Shown here one piece after another: positions 56,641-64,000 of a DNA stretch of 64,000 nt (position 1 is the stretch's first letter; the number at the start of each line of letters is the position of its first letter). The notes below the pieces were generated by a model. It saw only the letters and a program-made list of their open reading frames with translations. It ran no database searches and had not been told where the DNA came from. The DNA lies in the IMG/VR virus record IMGVR_UViG_3300018890_000001, positions 135,764 to 199,763 of that record. One strand, 5' to 3'. The DNA is from a virus. Both the position numbers and the translations under genes were made by a program.

Positions 56641-58689
56641 ATGCGTCGCCAACAACGCCTCACCGCTGCAAATCACAAAAGTATCGCCAAAAGTAGAGAT
56701 CCGGCAGGGTTAATCGGTCGCCAGTCTTTTTCAGAACAAACGCAAGCGCAGAAACAAAATGCGATCGCCCGCTTCTGGTACGGTGACGGGCATCTCTACT
56801 GCCAAGAATGGATTGCTGAAAATTACAGAACTCACGCAGGATTACCGCTGCGCTGGGATGAACCTTTCTTTTCCGGGTTTGTATCTGCAATGGCAAACCC
56901 CTGGTTACTGCGGGTAACGGTGATCAAAGGTGCTCAGATGGGTTTTTCGGAAATGCTGATCGCCCTTGTTGCCTTTTGCTTAGTAGAACTTCGCAGTTCT
57001 ACGATTTACTGCGTAGACGAAAAACTCAAGTTAATGGACATTGTAGGTCCGCGAGTGCAGCCGGCGTTCGACAGTATTAAACCGATTCAACTACTGCGAC
57101 AGCTATCAATAAAAATGCGTGGTCGTAAAGATACTGACACAAAACAGCGCAACGTTGATGTGGGCGGGGTTCCGGTTTACTTTGCGTTTGCAGGCAAAGC
57201 CGGTAACGGCAGTCAAGGGCGACAAGTTTCAAGTTCACTTAGTTCGGTTCCAATTGAAGCCTATACGATCGCCGATGAAGTTGAAGCCTTCCCACCAGGG
57301 GCACTCAATATTCTATTAGAACGAACTTCAGCGTCAACGTTACCGACTTGTCCGCTTCGGTGCGGATCGACTCCCGGAGCAGAAGGGGGCGTCGTAGATG
57401 TTGAGGTTAAAACATCCAAGTATTTTTTTGACTGGTACGTGGTTTGTCCGCATTGCGAAGCTGGGCAGTTTTTATCACCCAAAGGCAATTTATTTAAACC
57501 ATTAGAAATTGAAGGGCGATCGGATCTTCAGTATTTTGATACTGTCGGCAATCCGCTCGATTGGTTTTGCACAGATTCGAGCAGTCTTGAAAAAAGAATT
57601 GGGACCGCGTATCTCGGGTGTCGGCACTGCGCCGGCGAACTATCCCAAGAGATGATTGCCCAAGGTTATTACCGCTGCCATCACACCGGGGAAATCCTGA
57701 GCGAATTTACCGACAGAACCCAACAAGCTAAAAAGCCAGTGCGCGACGGTGTTGCATTGCGACTACCAAGACTTGCGTCAAAACTGTTCAATCTGCAAGA
57801 GCGATTGGGACGGTTAACTCAAGCCCGCAATATCAGCGACAGAGCTGATTCGCTTCAGCAGGGTTTTGGTGAAGTTAGCTCTTTTGGTGCCGGTCGGATT
57901 GATAAATCACTGCTACTCGAATGTATCGGTAAACCGTTACCTGCAACTTGCACGGTTCCAGATTTAATTGTTGTTGGTGCTGACCAAGGTCTTGGACATC
58001 AAATATCGGTGGTGACTTACTGGTATTGGGGAGAAGGTAAAGACGAGCGCGAGAAATGGGAAACCGCGCACGTCGAAGTGAAGTGGTTCGGTTCCGTGTA
58101 TCGCATGGACGGGATCGAGGAGCTTGCCGCCACATGGAAAGCTGATTTTGTAGGGATCGACATGAATCCAGAAGCTTATTCTGCTGGGCAGTTCGCAACC
58201 AAATTCCGACCGGAGCGAGAAACTAAGGGGACACGGGCGATCGAACTCAGTCGCGGTCGAAATGTCGATCGCCCGCAAAATCATTTCGAGCAAACTGGCG
58301 TTGTTTTCATGTTTTATCAAACCGCGCTCAAAGGTGAGGAATTTAGGCATTCGACACGTAACGTGCAAGGTGAAGATTATCCAGCATTCGCGCTCGATCG
58401 CACGTTCGGACTGGATTCAGTTTTAGAACTGGTGCATTCCGGGCGACTGCATTTGCCGGGAGACTGGGTTTACGATCCTCGCGACAAAGAATCGTTTCTC
58501 TATCAGATGTTGACTTCGGAGCGCACAGCTAAAGCGCAATGGATCGAAGGTACAGAACCAGATCACGCATTTCACGCGCTTAACTTTGCCGCAATGACCG
58601 CCGTATGTTGGCCAGATCTATTGTTATCGAAGCCGACACCATTTGTATTTGGTGGCGTTGGAAAACCTAAGCCTATACCTTATTTTTAG
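56641..58689 (+). CDS. Terminase large subunit, lambda gpA-type
   Basis: KGAQMGFSE Walker A, IADEVE Walker B, GSTP, CPHC, GADQG and PDHAFHA. Confidence 0.9.
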   Translation: MRRQQRLTAANHKSIAKSRDPAGLIGRQSFSEQTQAQKQNAIARFWYGDGHLYCQEWIAENYRTHAGLPLRWDEPFFSGFVSAMANPWLLRVTVIKGAQMGFSEMLIALVAFCLVELRSSTIYCVDEKLKLMDIVGPRVQPAFDSIKPIQLLRQLSIKMRGRKDTDTKQRNVDVGGVPVYFAFAGKAGNGSQGRQVSSSLSSVPIEAYTIADEVEAFPPGALNILLERTSASTLPTCPLRCGSTPGAEGGVVDVEVKTSKYFFDWYVVCPHCEAGQFLSPKGNLFKPLEIEGRSDLQYFDTVGNPLDWFCTDSSSLEKRIGTAYLGCRHCAGELSQEMIAQGYYRCHHTGEILSEFTDRTQQAKKPVRDGVALRLPRLASKLFNLQERLGRLTQARNISDRADSLQQGFGEVSSFGAGRIDKSLLLECIGKPLPATCTVPDLIVVGADQGLGHQISVVTYWYWGEGKDEREKWETAHVEVKWFGSVYRMDGIEELAATWKADFVGIDMNPEAYSAGQFATKFRPERETKGTRAIELSRGRNVDRPQNHFEQTGVVFMFYQTALKGEEFRHSTRNVQGEDYPAFALDRTFGLDSVLELVHSGRLHLPGDWVYDPRDKESFLYQMLTSERTAKAQWIEGTEPDHAFHALNFAAMTAVCWPDLLLSKPTPFVFGGVGKPKPIPYF

Positions 58690-59483
58690 CTCGGTTTAAA
58701 CGATTGCTCGATCTCTCGGAGCTTTGATGCTCTAACCGTCTCAGACAGTTTTACATTTCTCTCCTCTATCAATCCGAGGATTTCTTTTCTGTGCTTAGCT
58801 CTTTGCTTTCGCACTTCCTCTTCGGGACTTCGCAATACACAGCCAATGCTAACTAATAAATATGCAATGCTTTTATTTGTGCGATCGAAATACTGAGCAA
58901 TCTCTGCTAAAGTATGTCCCTGCTCGTACAGAGATTTGTACTGCAAAGCCCTTGCCTTAACATCAGAGATCATTCGTGGACTTGGCTTACCCTGGGGTCG
59001 TGTTTCTACGTTGTTCTTTATTAGCGCGCTTAACACGGTCGAGACGGTCGTTTTTTCATGCACGGCAATTTCTGTGAGTGACAGCCCCCAATCTTGGTAA
59101 AGGGTACACCATTTATCTTTATCAGAACCCCGATAAGAACAGAGTCGCTCCAACGAAATAGTTATATCGATGCCAGAGGCAGTTAAGAATTTTTGAACGT
59201 TGCTAGGTGATACGCGCATTTTTTGGGAAATCTCAAAGATGGTATACCCATCATTAAATAGTAAAGCTGCGCGATTCACGTTCTCTTCAGTTACGACAAA
59301 CTTACTCAGTCTGTAACAGCCGCACGAAACAATTTTTCCTGATTTCAAATAATCTGCGCGCACTTCTGTCTCTTGACCGCAATCGCAGACATACAGCCAG
59401 GTGACGTTGTTACCTTTCTTCCCTGACTTGGTTTTTACAGTCAGTTGACCGTACCGATTACCGATGTCGATTCTTTCAGTCAT
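58686..59483 (-). CDS. Homing-endonuclease-type N-terminal Cys module plus tandem HTH repeats
   Basis: GNRYGQLTV..W..CDCG..SG..SCGC followed by three Y..G.(S/T)L.EIA repeats. Confidence 0.65.
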   Translation of the reverse strand: MTERIDIGNRYGQLTVKTKSGKKGNNVTWLYVCDCGQETEVRADYLKSGKIVSCGCYRLSKFVVTEENVNRAALLFNDGYTIFEISQKMRVSPSNVQKFLTASGIDITISLERLCSYRGSDKDKWCTLYQDWGLSLTEIAVHEKTTVSTVLSALIKNNVETRPQGKPSPRMISDVKARALQYKSLYEQGHTLAEIAQYFDRTNKSIAYLLVSIGCVLRSPEEEVRKQRAKHRKEILGLIEERNVKLSETVRASKLREIEQSFKPS

Positions 59484-60332: not shown

Positions 60333-60812
60333 TTACGTTAGCAGACAATGCCAATAATGGGTATCTGTCTCGGTTTGCTTCCAGTACCCATTGCTTGCGG
60401 CAAGGATTTTACCTGTCTCGACGACTTGTACGGAAGCTCCATACAGTTCGTGATATTTGTATGCAAATTCCTCTTGCGCATAAGCAATTGCTTTTTCTAC
60501 AGAAACAAATTCACCACAGTCAAAAATTCCGTGGTCATTACCTATGTCGGCTCCGACAATAAGTTTGTACGTTACAACTTTAAAAAAGCCACATTCCGGT
60601 TTACCGTCAGGAAGAATTCCGGGCGATCGAATCGCCATTTCATTCATAACTGCATACCAAATATTGCGTTCCATGTCAGCGAACATAGGTGTCCCCCATG
60701 TGTAGTAACCGTCACTCCCAAGCTGCTCAGTGCAGTAATGGTTCACATCAACAGCATTCTTGCTTGCATTTACACGAGCGAATACGCAAGATTTACAACC
60801 ATGAAATTGCAT
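60333..60812 (-). CDS. Hypothetical protein
   Basis: 159 aa with N-terminal CKSC; TTGCAT..TATTAT promoter upstream. Confidence 0.65.
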   Translation of the reverse strand: MQFHGCKSCVFARVNASKNAVDVNHYCTEQLGSDGYYTWGTPMFADMERNIWYAVMNEMAIRSPGILPDGKPECGFFKVVTYKLIVGADIGNDHGIFDCGEFVSVEKAIAYAQEEFAYKYHELYGASVQVVETGKILAASNGYWKQTETDTHYWHCLLT

Positions 60813-60934
60813 AATAGATACTTTTTTTAAATATATTTATTATAATACACTTAATCCAACTAATGCAATAGTCGCATACGGTATTAAATAAAAACAAAGT
60901 CCCCAGCAATTAGTTTTAGTAAATGTTGGGGACT

Positions 60935-61377
60935 TTGTTTGACGATTCTCACTGCCTTGTCAGTGAAGGTGGTCAACCTGAAGCCTGAAAATATCAACGC
61001 GCATTGCCCGGAGGGATCGACTTCTATCCCTGAATCCTGCCGATTTTTAGTAAATGCCGTGCAGTCCCCTACGATTCATGGGTTGCTTTCGCAACTTTCT
61101 TCGGATCTCATGGTTGATAACACTTATCCCGGCTTCGCTATACCATTTCTGGTTGATGGTTGTCACACGCTTGCTTTCTCTGATTCGGTCAGATATCCTA
61201 GTCCAATTACTTGACCACAACAACTTGATACTTGTTGTGCGCTCCTCTACCATTTCTACTGCCTGCCCGTTCTTTCAATCAATGGGACACCCGCCAAAAT
61301 CACAGACGGTTCTTAATGCAGTAGTAAGCTCTTCGGCAATTAGCTAGTAATAGCTAATACAAAAAACTTGTTTTACT
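60935..61377 (-). ncRNA. Putative large structured ncRNA (~440 nt)
   Basis: TTGACA-17-GATACT promoter (61412-61384), dense hairpins including GTTGC-GAAA-GCAAC, terminator at ~60894-60936, no convincing ORF. Confidence 0.6.
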
Positions 61378-61470
61378 ATTAATAGTATCCCATAAAATAA
61401 TATAAATGTCAACTATAGTGTACGTTTTATTAGATAATAGAGCCAGTGTATCTCTAATAGGAGTTAATTA

Positions 61471-61614
61471 TGTCTACAGCAAATTCCAATGTGCGTTGGA
61501 TCGAAATGTACGATCAAAGCGGTCAAATTATAGCACGACCGGATACAACGATGCCACCACAGCCTGCGGAATCAAATCCAACACCGTCTAGCACGACTGA
61601 TAAAGCTAAGTAGG
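61471..61614 (+). CDS. Small 47-aa protein (coordinates approximate)
   Basis: AGGAG Shine-Dalgarno, MSTANSNVRWIEMYDQSG.., followed by a terminator. Confidence 0.5.
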
Positions 61615-61667
61615 TATTTAACTGCAATTCAAAAGCCCTGCACTTAATCAAGATGCAGGGCTTTTTT

Positions 61668-61947
61668 ACTGTCTTGTCAACCAGTTCGGAGGAGATTCCT
61701 TGAGGAATACACGAGATCGATTGGTGACGATGGTTTAGGAGTGCGTATTATAGTACAGCAAAACACCGGACAATATTATGAATAAACGTTTAGATTTTCG
61801 GATTCAGGAATCGGAATTTAAGATTCTTGAAGAACATTGCCAAGCTGTAGGTAGGACTAAAACTGATGTACTCAGAGAGCTAATCAGAAGCCTCAAGGTT
61901 GAGGAAAAGCCGTCCTAGAAGGACGGGGCTTCAGACCCAATTTTTTG
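61668..61947 (-). mobile_element. Non-autonomous IS200/IS605 derivative
   Basis: Minus strand reads TCAC|CAAAAAATTGGGTCTGAAGCCCCGTCC (guide GAAG matches TCAC); the right-end-like GAATCTCC hairpin is incomplete. Confidence 0.65.
61778..61918 (+). CDS. RHH/CopG protein carried by the IS605 derivative
   Basis: MNKRLDFRIQESEFKILEEHCQAVGRTKTDVLRELIRSL. Confidence 0.75.
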   Translation: MNKRLDFRIQESEFKILEEHCQAVGRTKTDVLRELIRSLKVEEKPS

Positions 61948-62040
61948 GTGATGGGTGGGCGACGAATCGTCAAGCATCTTCGGAAATAAATCGAGTAACA
62001 AGGTATAATATATTAAGTTGCTCTCAGGTACGATCGTTGA

Positions 62041-62155
62041 TATAGCAGTTCTCAACTTTCGTGAGGTACTTGTAAGTTAATTACCAATTCCCCACTTCTT
62101 CAATCCTTTAATCTAAAATCTAAATTTGTACCTCACTCACTTGAGAATTGCTATA
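62041..62155. repeat. Host MITE/REP-like inverted-repeat element
   Basis: TATAGCAGTTCTCAA..GTGAGGTAC pairs with GTACCTCAC..TTGAGAATTGCTATA. Confidence 0.7.
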
Positions 62156-62250
62156 CACATCTAGACAGCCCTTTGAGGAAACATACTTGACATCTCTCCA
62201 GCCCTTTCATAGACGGGGAAATGTCGCCTTCAATCCTTTGGCAAAATTGA

Positions 62251-62280
62251 GAATGGGAAATGGGAAATGGGGAATTGGGA
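62251..62280 (+). repeat. STRR-type heptamer tandem repeat
   Basis: About four (AATGGGA)-like units, typical of filamentous cyanobacteria. Confidence 0.75.
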
Positions 62281-62336
62281 AAATTTTCTCCCCATCTCCT
62301 TAATCCCCAGTTTAGGATATTACTTTCTTTTCTCAA

Positions 62337-63914
62337 TTAAACTAAGGATTTGAGATTTAAAGCCGCTTTGTTAAGTGTTTGAGTGCCAACTCGACTTTGG
62401 GTAATACCGCTGGCTGTTTCCGCTGCTCCTTTATTCAGAACATTCATCGCATCTACCACTTGCTCAATAGCGATCGCCTGCTGTTTGGTATTCAGATAAA
62501 TTTGCTGACTGCTCATAACAACACTGTTAATTGCATTAGCAACATTGTTAAAAGTCTCCGCCGTACCTTCAGTCAATTTCAGGCTATTATCTAAAGTTTT
62601 ATTACCCTCATCTGTTACCATCACTGTCTTATTAATGGCATTCTTAATATCGTTTATCAAATCATTAATCTGAGCCGACGATTTCTTGCTTTCATCTGCG
62701 AGTCGGCGAATTTCCCTCGCCACCACCCCAAACCCCTTTCCTTGTTCTCCGCTGCGTACTGCTTCCACTGTGGCGTTAATTGCCAGCATATTAGTTTGAT
62801 TAGCCAAATCGCTGACTAAATTGGTAATATTAGCAATCTGATTGGTTTGCTGGCTCAAATGTAAAACTTGCTCGGCGATCGCTCCGACTTTTTCCGTCAA
62901 AGTCAACATTCCCTGCTGGGTTGTCTGCACTACTTTACTGCCTTCTGCTGCCATGTTTAAGACATGACTGGCATTCTCAAGGGCTGACTCGGCTTGCATA
63001 GCTGATTGCCTCGATGATGCGCCCAATTCATCCATTGTGCTAGTTGTTTGATTAACAGAAGCAGCTTGTTGTACAGCAATACGTTCCTGTTGCTCAATTG
63101 TAGCAGCGATCTCGGTAGAAGAACTGACAATCATATTAATAATACCTTTCAGTGCTTTATCTAAAGGTTTGGCGATAGCTATACTTAAAGCTATTCCTAA
63201 ACTAATCGCTGTTAGCGGTCCAATAGTCATCCCCAGTAATACAAATAGTTGACTTTTTGTACTATCATTTTGTGCTTTTTTATAAGCGTAATCAGCTTGC
63301 TTTCTGTTGGATTCAACCACTGCTAAAGTTGAGTTTTCTGCATTTATAAACTTAACACGAATTAATCTAGCTTGCTGCCTAAGTTTATCCAAAAGGTTAC
63401 TAGCTGTCTTGGCTATTGCCATTTCGGGCGACTTACTTTTACCCTGATTAACTAGGTTTAGCTGCAAACCCAAAGGATTCAAAATTCCCAAATTTTCAAA
63501 TTCTTGATTAATTCGCAGGAGTTCTTTATCTTCCTGCTTCCACTCCTCCCAATACTTAAGCATTTGTTTATATAGTGCATCTTCCTCTGCGGTACGTGGA
63601 GTGGCTTCGTATGCTTTAAAGCCATCTTTAATCTGCTGCCAAGCCTTGTCCATTCTGTTTAAGGCATCTTGCCTTTCGGCTGGACTGAGTGCCGGATTAA
63701 TTAGCGCTCTCTCTGATGACTCAATTTGGGTTTGTCCCTCGTTAATTTTCAATAAAGCTTCAATACTCGGTAAGTTATTTTTACCTATAGTATCTATGTG
63801 TTGACTGAGATTAGATGTTGAACTCCATCCTACCCAAGCTACTAAAAATACTAAAAGTCCCATCATCAGAAAGGCGCCGATCAGTCTGGTTTGTAAATTC
63901 AGGTTTCTCAACAT
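62337..63914 (-). CDS. Methyl-accepting chemotaxis protein (host)
   Basis: Two TM helices, four-helix-bundle sensor and QTNMLAINATVEAVRSGEQGKGFGVVAREIRRLA signalling motif. The start may be 63965. Confidence 0.95.
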   Translation of the reverse strand: MLRNLNLQTRLIGAFLMMGLLVFLVAWVGWSSTSNLSQHIDTIGKNNLPSIEALLKINEGQTQIESSERALINPALSPAERQDALNRMDKAWQQIKDGFKAYEATPRTAEEDALYKQMLKYWEEWKQEDKELLRINQEFENLGILNPLGLQLNLVNQGKSKSPEMAIAKTASNLLDKLRQQARLIRVKFINAENSTLAVVESNRKQADYAYKKAQNDSTKSQLFVLLGMTIGPLTAISLGIALSIAIAKPLDKALKGIINMIVSSSTEIAATIEQQERIAVQQAASVNQTTSTMDELGASSRQSAMQAESALENASHVLNMAAEGSKVVQTTQQGMLTLTEKVGAIAEQVLHLSQQTNQIANITNLVSDLANQTNMLAINATVEAVRSGEQGKGFGVVAREIRRLADESKKSSAQINDLINDIKNAINKTVMVTDEGNKTLDNSLKLTEGTAETFNNVANAINSVVMSSQQIYLNTKQQAIAIEQVVDAMNVLNKGAAETASGITQSRVGTQTLNKAALNLKSLV

Positions 63915-64000
63915 AATATTTTTCCTTCCTTCTACTACAGCGCTCCTCGCTGGAGTCATGAACACATATTGTATAGTATAGCCTTGCTCAGGTAGATGAG

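Follow-up and report, generated by a model that had tools for sequence, protein, structure and literature searches.

A probable new family of large structured RNAs encoded by prophages of filamentous cyanobacteria

We describe a gene for a large structured RNA on the minus strand of a 64,000-nt stretch of viral DNA, hereafter called the window, which covers positions 135,764 to 199,763 of the IMG/VR virus record IMGVR_UViG_3300018890_000001 and thereby makes up the last 64 kb of that 199,763-bp record. The gene forms a compact cassette: promoter signals of the host RNA polymerase type stand directly before the RNA, and an intrinsic terminator stands directly after it. In our reading, it is a gene in its own right whose product, a large, structured and non-coding RNA of an undescribed family, would act in trans as a folded particle of the prophage, and we give this reading as a whole a probability of roughly 0.65. 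Its parts are not equally firm. That the locus is a structured RNA gene is close to certain, that the family is a new one is very likely, and for the mode of action as a trans-acting particle the chances are about even. From one prophage of filamentous cyanobacteria to another, the cassette is flanked by different genes.

Results

The RNA has its own promoter and terminator

The initial annotation, made from the sequence of the window, had placed a near-consensus promoter on the minus strand and an intrinsic terminator at the end of the segment, and both elements held up. The -35 element of the promoter is TTGACA (61412-61407); after a spacer of 17 nt comes the -10 element GATACT (61389-61384), extended by TG. 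With 10 of 12 consensus matches and the TG present, it ranks first among the eight promoter-like sites in the 2.9 kb scanned, and the arrangement TTGACA-17-TGn(T/G)ATA(C/T)T is conserved in the window and in the DNA homologs L017, L018 and L019. The terminator lies ~490 nt past the promoter and combines a 12-bp stem (60938-60927 with 60905-60894) with a U-tract (60893-60886); a simple terminator scan missed it, as the loop exceeds the length allowed there. A terminator hairpin is always present in the homologs, with stems that differ in sequence. The transcript features are as follows.

61384-61412, minus strand: sigma-70-type promoter, assigned from consensus matches and conservation; predicted start near A61377
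60886-61377, minus strand: predicted primary transcript of ~490 nt, from the promoter and terminator positions, the coverage by the contigs X8 and X12 (see below) and the L017 homology block
60886-60938, minus strand: intrinsic terminator

The structured core of the predicted transcript extends from 61378 to 60980 and is followed by a 3' hairpin and the terminator, and the L017 homology block spans 60889-61691. In L018, the two terminators flanking the cassette (75-130 and 925-975) are a near-identical palindrome, GGGGCGATCGGAT..ATCCGATCGCCCC, which contains HIP1. HIP1 is a hallmark of cyanobacteria and occurs at 61 sites in the record that contains the window.

Relatives occur in phages and in natural-community RNA libraries

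We found eight relatives of the RNA: L017, L018 and L019, the RNA-library contigs X8 and X12, the DNA contig X13, and two copies, G081a and G081b, in the cyanobacterial genome G081. A run search indicated that a small part of the stretch is held by many public sequencing runs; three of the four runs examined contain diverged copies, and all three of the small-share runs examined yielded true homologs. Another sixteen small-share runs, from freshwater, farm, soil, wastewater and other sources, do not count here towards habitat or distribution. X12 is a 372-nt contig from a biocrust metatranscriptome that covers 61315-60952. X8, a 390-nt contig from a rhizosphere metatranscriptome, covers 61354-60988 and has a sequencing adapter directly at one end, and X13 is a 242-nt contig from a DNA run. 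Each of the three is 90-96% identical to the window and made up of the RNA segment alone. Their sequences were rebuilt from tables of differences against the window, and those parts of 60600-61700 that X8 and X12 do not cover should not be taken as evidence of silence. As far as assembled contigs can, the discrete 372-nt and 390-nt contigs bear out the transcript implied by the initial annotation. They are consistent with, but do not prove, a discrete and abundant transcript in nature.

L017, a related phage with the whole cassette, came from a metagenome scan, which under-samples the family because its 20-mer query later proved variable in L018 and L019. The latter two were recovered with a spurious antisense open reading frame (ORF) as the protein query, and the same approach returned L020, whose RNA is identical to that of the window. 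Searches with the antisense 'proteins' and with the neighbouring 47-amino-acid (aa) protein found only L018, L019, L020 and the window itself. The closest phage relatives reached via neighbouring proteins, L003 (terminase 77% identical) and L004 (159-aa gene 74%), lack the cassette, which therefore behaves as an accessory element. Neither the INPHARED phages nor the PLSDB plasmids gave a BLASTN match to the locus, and DNA pattern scans of IMG/VR with the invariant stretches and the family core motif gave none beyond the window's own record; a protein scan of IMG/VR with the 159-aa gene found L004, without the RNA.

Covariation supports a multi-domain fold with a pseudoknot

The structure model was derived from RNAalifold and a search for covarying column pairs and was then tested by shuffles and slid partners. 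Minimum free energy z-scores are modest and alike on both strands (-2.9 for minus and -3.5 for plus), and the case rests on comparative evidence because the folding energy alone is unremarkable. In alignment A3, 98.9% of the cells at the 119 pairs tested are paired, and 11 pairs are doubly changed as opposed to 4.3±1.5 in shuffles, none of 500 of which reached 11, and 0-1 in the slid controls. The two six-sequence alignments, which were fitted to the model structure, gave 13 doubly changed pairs versus 6.0±1.7 for P2-P4 (A6) and 10 versus 3.0±1.3 for P5-P9 (A8), again with none of 500 shuffles reaching the observed count. The homologs thus display a clear excess of doubly changed pairs over shuffles, the outcome that the initial annotation had named as the check on its RNA. 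It had also held that the G-U pairs work on the minus strand only; the fold, which includes 37 G-U cells, is paired at only 91.0% on the plus strand, in agreement with this claim.

A 5' domain of ~330 nt is closed by the long-range helix P1, in which the 5' end pairs with a segment ~320 nt downstream. The domain holds two hairpins, H1 and H2, and a wheel of six arms, P2-P7, with highly conserved purine-rich linkers. A pseudoknotted 3' domain and a terminal hairpin follow.

61334-61378, minus strand: 5' strand of P1, comprising P1a (UAGUAAA, 61378-61372) and P1b (UGCCG, 61338-61334), with H1 (61371-61359) and H2 (61358-61339) inserted between them
61256-61324, minus strand: P2 three-way junction, with P2 (CUACUGC/GCAGUAG), P2a (CCGUC/GGCGG) and P2b
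61155-61254, minus strand: P3 domain, with the outer helix GAUGGU/ACCAUC, GCGC/GCGU and three inner hairpins
61142-61153, minus strand: P4 hairpin ACCA-GAAA-UGGU, with a GNRA loop in the close homologs
61061-61129, minus strand: P5 (61129-61103), the GNRA hairpin P6 (61095-61082) and P7 (61072-61061), placed by covariation and the core motif
61048-61059, minus strand: 3' strand of P1, CGGCA (61059-61055) and UUUACUA (61054-61048)
60980-61044, minus strand: 3' pseudoknot domain, with P8 (61044-61039 with 60998-60993) and P9 (AGGGAU/AUCCCU, 61031-61012)
60939-60976, minus strand: 3' hairpin UUGAC..UCACUG/CAGUGA..GUCAA, with three double changes in L017 and L018

All 12 pairs of P1 hold in the four close homologs and 11 of the 12 in G081a, where four are doubly changed; P1b changes from G-C to A-U in L019 and carries two more double changes in G081. 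H1 exchanges A-U for G-C in L019 and is a different stem in G081a and G081b, and H2 occurs in five sequence versions that have 8 bp each. P2 has double changes at five of its seven pairs across six sequences, with 100% of the cells paired, and P2a shows both G-C to A-U and U.G to C-G. The 16-nt loop of P2b is invariant in all seven close sequences and is not conserved in the G081 copies. The outer helix of P3 reads CUGGC/GCCAG in G081a and CUAGU/ACUAG in G081b, with the inner hairpins down to one. Three pairs of P4 covary (GUCA-GCAA-UGAC in X12, ACUA-GAAA-UAGU in L019). The inner stem of P5 changes from GUG/CAY to GCA/UGY in G081, and P6 has two covarying pairs in X12 and becomes GGC-GNRA-GCC in G081. 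Conserved purine-rich linkers join P5 to P7, namely CGAAG..GGAUAAG, GAGAUCCG and CGUAGGnGAC.

In the 3' domain, the P9 loop GAAGUC (61024-61019) pairs with GGCUUC (60985-60980) to form a 6-bp pseudoknot. The pairing is AAAGCC/GGCUUU in L017, GAAGUC/GACUUC in L018, L019 and X12, UGUAAC/GUUACA in G081a and GGCAAC/GUUGCC in G081b, so that six of six positions are paired in all five versions, three of which are unrelated in sequence; among the close homologs, the changes are G-C to A-U in L017 and U.G to C-G or U-A elsewhere. The same domain contains an element at 60998-61005 (minus strand) that reads AUGCGCGU in the window and ACGCGCGU in L017-L019. Its pattern, (A/U)(C/U)GCGCGU, is self-complementary in all six close sequences covering it, and the U-to-C change preserves the self-complementarity. 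Judged from its sequence, the element is a possible dimerisation site. The 3' hairpin is optional because it is absent from the G081 copies.

Most helices listed in the initial annotation were recovered through covariation or invariance: CTACTGC/GCAGTAG, CCGTC/GGCGG, CACAAC/GTTGTG, TCTGA/TCAGA, GTTGC-GAAA-GCAAC, AGGGAT/ATCCCT and the final hairpin TTGAC..TCACTG/CAGTGA..GTCAA. TGTCC/GGGCA was recovered too, though only approximately. The segments proposed to pair as ACCAT/ATGGT do pair, but as a local ACCA-GAAA-UGGU hairpin plus the long-range GAUGGU/ACCAUC helix. Two further proposals had to be given up: GATAA/TTATC is replaced by GGAU..GUG/CAY..AUCC, and ATTGCC/GGCAAT, proposed as the closing stem, has mismatches in L017-L019, with UGCCG/CGGCA and UAGUAAA/UUUACUA closing the domain instead.

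Distant tandem copies preserve the architecture

R1, a covariance model of P2-P4, matched a non-coding stretch in the cyanobacterial genome G081 at 25.7 bits, a score that is not convincing on its own. R2, an independent model made only from P5-P9 of the four close sequences, matched both G081 copies directly 3' of the R1 matches, with 42.9 and 26.4 bits, but did not match the false loci described below. The two copies (L023 7847-8270 and 9770-10190, G081:C27) are tandem paralogs 1.9 kb apart in one prophage. The stretch found first has its own promoter, TTTACA-17-TGTGTTATAAT, and its own terminator. The second copy, G081b, was found by BLAST 1.9 kb upstream, is 73-78% identical to the first and has a different promoter, TTGACA-17-TGTTATAAT; both promoters thus combine TTTACA or TTGACA with TGnTATAAT. 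The core motif CGAANNNNGGATAAG-N13-GAGATCCG occurred only at the two G081 sites in 350 genomes scanned, and the reversed control gave 0. A promoter-containing block, AAAAAGAGTATAAATACTT..ACATTTGTGTTAYAAT, that precedes G081a recurs before the next protein gene (L022 ~1400-1446 and 1880-1926).

The stems of the G081 copies are nearly all different in sequence, and the architecture is the same, with P1a, P1b, H1, H2, P2, P2a, P3, P5, P6, P9 and the pseudoknot all retained. The inner hairpins of P3 are reduced, one copy has a long P2b insertion and the 3' hairpin is absent; these parts are therefore dispensable. The G081 locus is prophage-like: it encodes a baseplate wedge protein and otherwise orphan genes, and the copies lie beside tail and baseplate genes.

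R1 also gave matches of 20-27 bits in G498 (L028), G499 (L027), G506 (L029) and G500 (L031), which we rejected as false: they lie inside a conserved 418-aa ORF, and R2 is silent there. The sequence there resembles the loops of P2a and P2b by chance. Because of them, single-domain R1 matches below ~30 bits need independent confirmation. A partial R1 match in G393 was set aside, uninspected, as a false positive.

BLASTN with the window RNA returned only chance matches of 23-40 nt from 401 order-level, 144 family-level and 401 phylum-level cyanobacterial genomes. G081 was the only positive among the 151 order-level genomes searched with R1, the 401 searched by BLASTN with a G081 copy and the 350 scanned for the core motif, and R1 found no true match in 144 family-level genomes. 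These sets are samples, and absence holds only for the genomes searched. The family is rare in assembled genomes.

Selection acts on the RNA and not on a reading frame

The initial annotation had noted a 68-aa ORF as the only one on the same strand, and this frame is indeed present.

61047-61253, minus strand: 68-aa ORF within the RNA, not conserved, with stops in L017, L018, L019, X8, X12 and X13

Antisense ORFs of 91 and 97 aa overlap the segment. In L019, the 97-aa frame has lost its start and is interrupted by a stop; in X12 it contains two stops, and the 91-aa frame is broken there as well. Variable columns are distributed over the three codon positions as 10/14/14, and pairwise ratios of nonsynonymous to synonymous substitution (dN/dS) range from 0.27 to 1.2. 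Codon-type conservation, named beforehand as a finding that would speak against an RNA, was not observed in the relatives, in which sense and antisense frames are broken alike. Between the window and L017, identity amounts to 95.8% over the 330-nt 5' domain, as opposed to 82.8% in the promoter region, 66.7% in the adjacent 47-aa protein gene and ~62% in the two terminators. The comparison of homologs shows, at the level of sequence, an RNA gene under strong purifying selection with no conserved reading frame.

Known RNA families give no match

Rfam 15 at gathering thresholds returned no match in the whole 64-kb window, and at E up to 10 it returned only terminator-hairpin noise in the locus. 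The copies in L018, L019 and G081 gave no match at gathering or permissive thresholds either. A hit to a known family would have removed the novelty, and the window, the close and the distant homologs all lack one. According to ARAGORN, no tRNA or transfer-messenger RNA (tmRNA) is encoded in the window, elsewhere in the 199,763-bp record or in the 20 kb of the G081 locus. The earlier statement that signatures of RNase P, tmRNA and group I/II introns are missing is thus matched by both programs.

The neighbourhood varies between prophages

In the window, a gpA-type large terminase gene lies at 56641-58689. A 159-aa orphan gene lies downstream of the RNA on the same strand, 78 nt past the terminator, and a small gene diverges from the RNA promoter on the other side.

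61470-61665, plus strand: 47-aa gene with a strong Shine-Dalgarno sequence (AGGAG) and its own terminator (61631-61665)

L017 encodes a 49-aa homolog of the latter that is similar in the N-terminal 30 residues, the start is present in L019, and L018 has an unrelated 84-aa gene in its place. Protein-family searches gave no match for it. The 47-aa gene is a frequent, though not obligatory, neighbour of the RNA, and its product might regulate the RNA or act as its partner. Searches of the ORFs within ~2.5 kb against Pfam, PHROGs and PADLOC revealed no reverse transcriptase, TnpB/IscB or known defence protein. The first gene past the RNA in L017 is convergent, and a BstA/helix-turn-helix (HTH)-like regulator lies nearby. 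This 258-aa protein (L017 7027-7803, minus strand) has a strong PADLOC 'HTH' match (E 3e-53) and weaker matches to BstA (abortive infection), and the L017 cassette sits amid regulatory or defence-type accessory genes.

In L020, the phage DNA beyond window position 61951 runs via ~460 nt (L020 8630-9091) into record position 1, whereas window positions 61952-64000 contain a methyl-accepting chemotaxis gene (62337-63965). The 61951/61952 boundary probably marks the point at which prophage and host DNA meet; alternatively, the end is variable. No att repeat was seen there. Because the L020 phage DNA continues differently after 61951, the cassette is placed ~0.6 kb from a phage/non-phage junction, which is a typical site for accessory genes. 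Directly after the terminase gene, a 265-aa ORF (58686-59483, minus strand) matches non-catalytic parts of phage HNH/homing-endonuclease families and HTH domains. It is absent at that place in L017 and L003 and may be a mobile insertion.

Discussion

Promoter, terminator, covariation and selection together point to a free-standing gene for a structured RNA. We propose that the RNA would be made constitutively from the prophage in lysogens and would act in trans as a folded particle, whose conserved junction core and loops may bind a partner, be it a protein, another RNA or further copies of the RNA itself. It would then be neither an mRNA nor a cis-acting leader, nor would it work mainly by antisense pairing. 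We infer action in trans because the phage offers no more antisense targets than chance would give and the neighbours argue against a cis-leader. As for other cassettes of this sort, known as morons, the role probably lies in phage-host conflict or prophage maintenance.

Several points weigh against this reading. Nine sequences are known in all, seven of which share at least 88% identity. The six-sequence alignments A6 and A8 favour the model structure because they were fitted to it, and the helices P8, P3a and P7 either show no variation at all or have mismatches in G081. X8, X12 and X13 are slightly incomplete because the difference tables omit changes near contig ends. The RNA-library support takes the form of assembled contigs, from which neither transcription nor strand nor ends can be proved, and expression in lysogens is deduced only from the type of promoter and the presence in bulk RNA libraries. 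Finally, the mode of action is our inference only.

A more daring version, which we put forward tentatively and regard as unlikely, is that the RNA is the founding member of a class of ornate phage RNAs that dispense with a dedicated protein and alter phage-host conflict as ribozymes or self-assembling multimers. In the first case, the conserved six-arm junction might be the foundation on which the ribozyme is built. In the second, assembly could use the possibly intermolecular pairing of the P9 loop with its downstream partner together with the self-complementary (A/U)(C/U)GCGCGU element. Either way, the RNA would be made in lysogens and change the outcome of phage-host conflict in soil-crust cyanobacteria.

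Among the rival explanations, a ribozyme, self-processing or trans-acting, with the purine-rich junction wheel as its catalytic core, survives best and is still improbable. The multi-helix wheel with its near-invariant linkers and GNRA hairpins would suit a catalyst, as would the very strong sequence constraint, and contig X8 ends in an adapter at 60988, short of the terminator, where the RNA might be processed. However, an assembled-contig end is weak evidence for cleavage, no Rfam ribozyme model matched even at E up to 10, and there is no obvious substrate; the 200-kb phage has no tRNAs and the RNA no flanking exons.

It is rather improbable that the RNA is a base-pairing regulator or sponge whose conserved loops pair with mRNAs or small RNAs of the host or phage. 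Prophage-encoded small RNAs and anti-small RNAs do act by base-pairing, and invariant single-stranded stretches such as the P2b loop, the strong constitutive promoter and the accessory-gene position in the prophage would fit. The RNA is nevertheless no more complementary to the 200-kb phage genome than chance predicts (13 12-mers versus 11.6 expected, none of at least 14 nt), the P2b loop is not kept in G081 although the architecture is, and ~490 nt with a closed multi-domain fold is atypical of seed-pairing RNAs.

A cis-acting leader, resembling a riboswitch or attenuator and governing read-through of the terminator into the 159-aa gene, is very improbable. The order in the window (promoter, RNA, terminator, 78 nt, same-strand gene) is what such a leader would have. 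In L017, however, the next gene is convergent, L004 carries a homolog of the 159-aa gene with no RNA upstream, the tandem G081 copies each have their own promoter, and the terminators differ in sequence and share no conserved alternative pairing with the core.

That the segment encodes small proteins (the 68-aa sense frame, a 12-aa peptide or the 91- and 97-aa antisense frames), with the structure being incidental, can practically be dismissed: the frames exist in the window and gene callers annotated the antisense ones in L018, L019 and L020, but every ORF has stops or a lost start in some homologs, third-position bias is missing, dN/dS reaches 1.2, none of the ORFs has a family match, and the G081 copies retain the fold and not the frames.

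Bacterial and phage RNAs longer than 350 nt with complex conserved folds are rare, and the earlier large-RNA classes (RNase P, group I/II introns, OLE, GOLLD, ROOL, raiA and HEARO) each came with unusual biochemistry or architecture. The present RNA is tractable. Its shortest form has ~370 nt, its promoter and terminator are defined, its length variants reveal which arms are dispensable, its pseudoknot is backed by fully different sequences, and RNA libraries from natural communities contain it as discrete contigs. With it, the ornate phage RNAs reach into the prophages of cyanobacteria and into a setting that lacks tRNA islands, and both structural work and genetic tests of how such RNAs benefit a prophage gain a concrete target.

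Several known systems were considered and set aside. In its size, long-range closing helix, radiating arms, GNRA loops and pseudoknot, the RNA is like group I/II introns, RNase P RNA and tmRNA. A group I/II intron was rejected as there is no Rfam match, no intron-encoded protein and no split ORF or RNA gene around it; with the promoter directly upstream and the terminator directly downstream, there is no interrupted host gene and there are no exons. RNase P RNA and tmRNA were rejected for want of an Rfam or ARAGORN match, a tag reading frame and a tRNA-like end. A type III antitoxin RNA would not fit, with no tandem repeats in 60800-61500, a downstream gene that is not conserved and neighbours without a PADLOC match. 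For a retron msr-msd or an omega RNA of IS200/IS605 or IscB, no reverse transcriptase, TnpB or IscB is adjacent, and the neighbours differ between homologs.

The phi29 pRNA is a ~120-174-nt RNA of phi29-like podoviruses. Like it, the present RNA is phage-encoded and structured, has its own promoter and lies 0.9-2.2 kb from the large terminase gene in the window and L017. Unlike it, the present RNA has no model match, and the G081 copies lie beside tail and baseplate genes rather than terminase; the proximity to the terminase is probably coincidental. With its own promoter and terminator, its patchy presence among related phages and its variable neighbourhood, the cassette is a typical prophage moron, except that the cargo is a large structured RNA and not a protein. 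Similarly to OLE and raiA, it is large and highly conserved in sequence and structure, and its action is thought to be that of a folded particle. OLE and raiA, however, have known gene associations and are encoded on the chromosomes of Firmicutes and Actinobacteria, whereas this RNA belongs to a mobile prophage cassette and matches neither model.

The closest comparison is with GOLLD and ROOL, as the initial annotation had suggested in calling the RNA comparable in kind and possibly a new class, which proves a fair description. GOLLD and ROOL often lie beside phage tRNA genes or islands (PMC12286853), whereas there are 0 tRNAs around this RNA. Neither the covariance model of GOLLD, with its conserved 3' domain, nor that of ROOL matches it. 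It is also smaller (~370-490 nt as opposed to ~580 nt for ROOL and >800 nt for GOLLD), and its hosts are cyanobacteria, unlike those of ROOL and GOLLD. GOLLD, ROOL and OLE form homo-oligomers via kissing loops and A-minor contacts; here, the contact of 61024-61019 with 60985-60980 covaries, and intra- and intermolecular pairing look the same in covariation. In ROOL, a covarying 'tertiary' loop contact proved to be intermolecular (PMC12286853), and by analogy the pseudoknot of the present RNA could be so as well. All three are nonetheless stand-alone RNA genes of phages or prophages, several hundred nucleotides long, with many helices, pseudoknots and GNRA loops, no known protein partner and covarying loop contacts that are possibly intra- or intermolecular (PMC12286853). 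We class the RNA described here as a new family within the large ornate phage RNAs, distinct from both GOLLD and ROOL.

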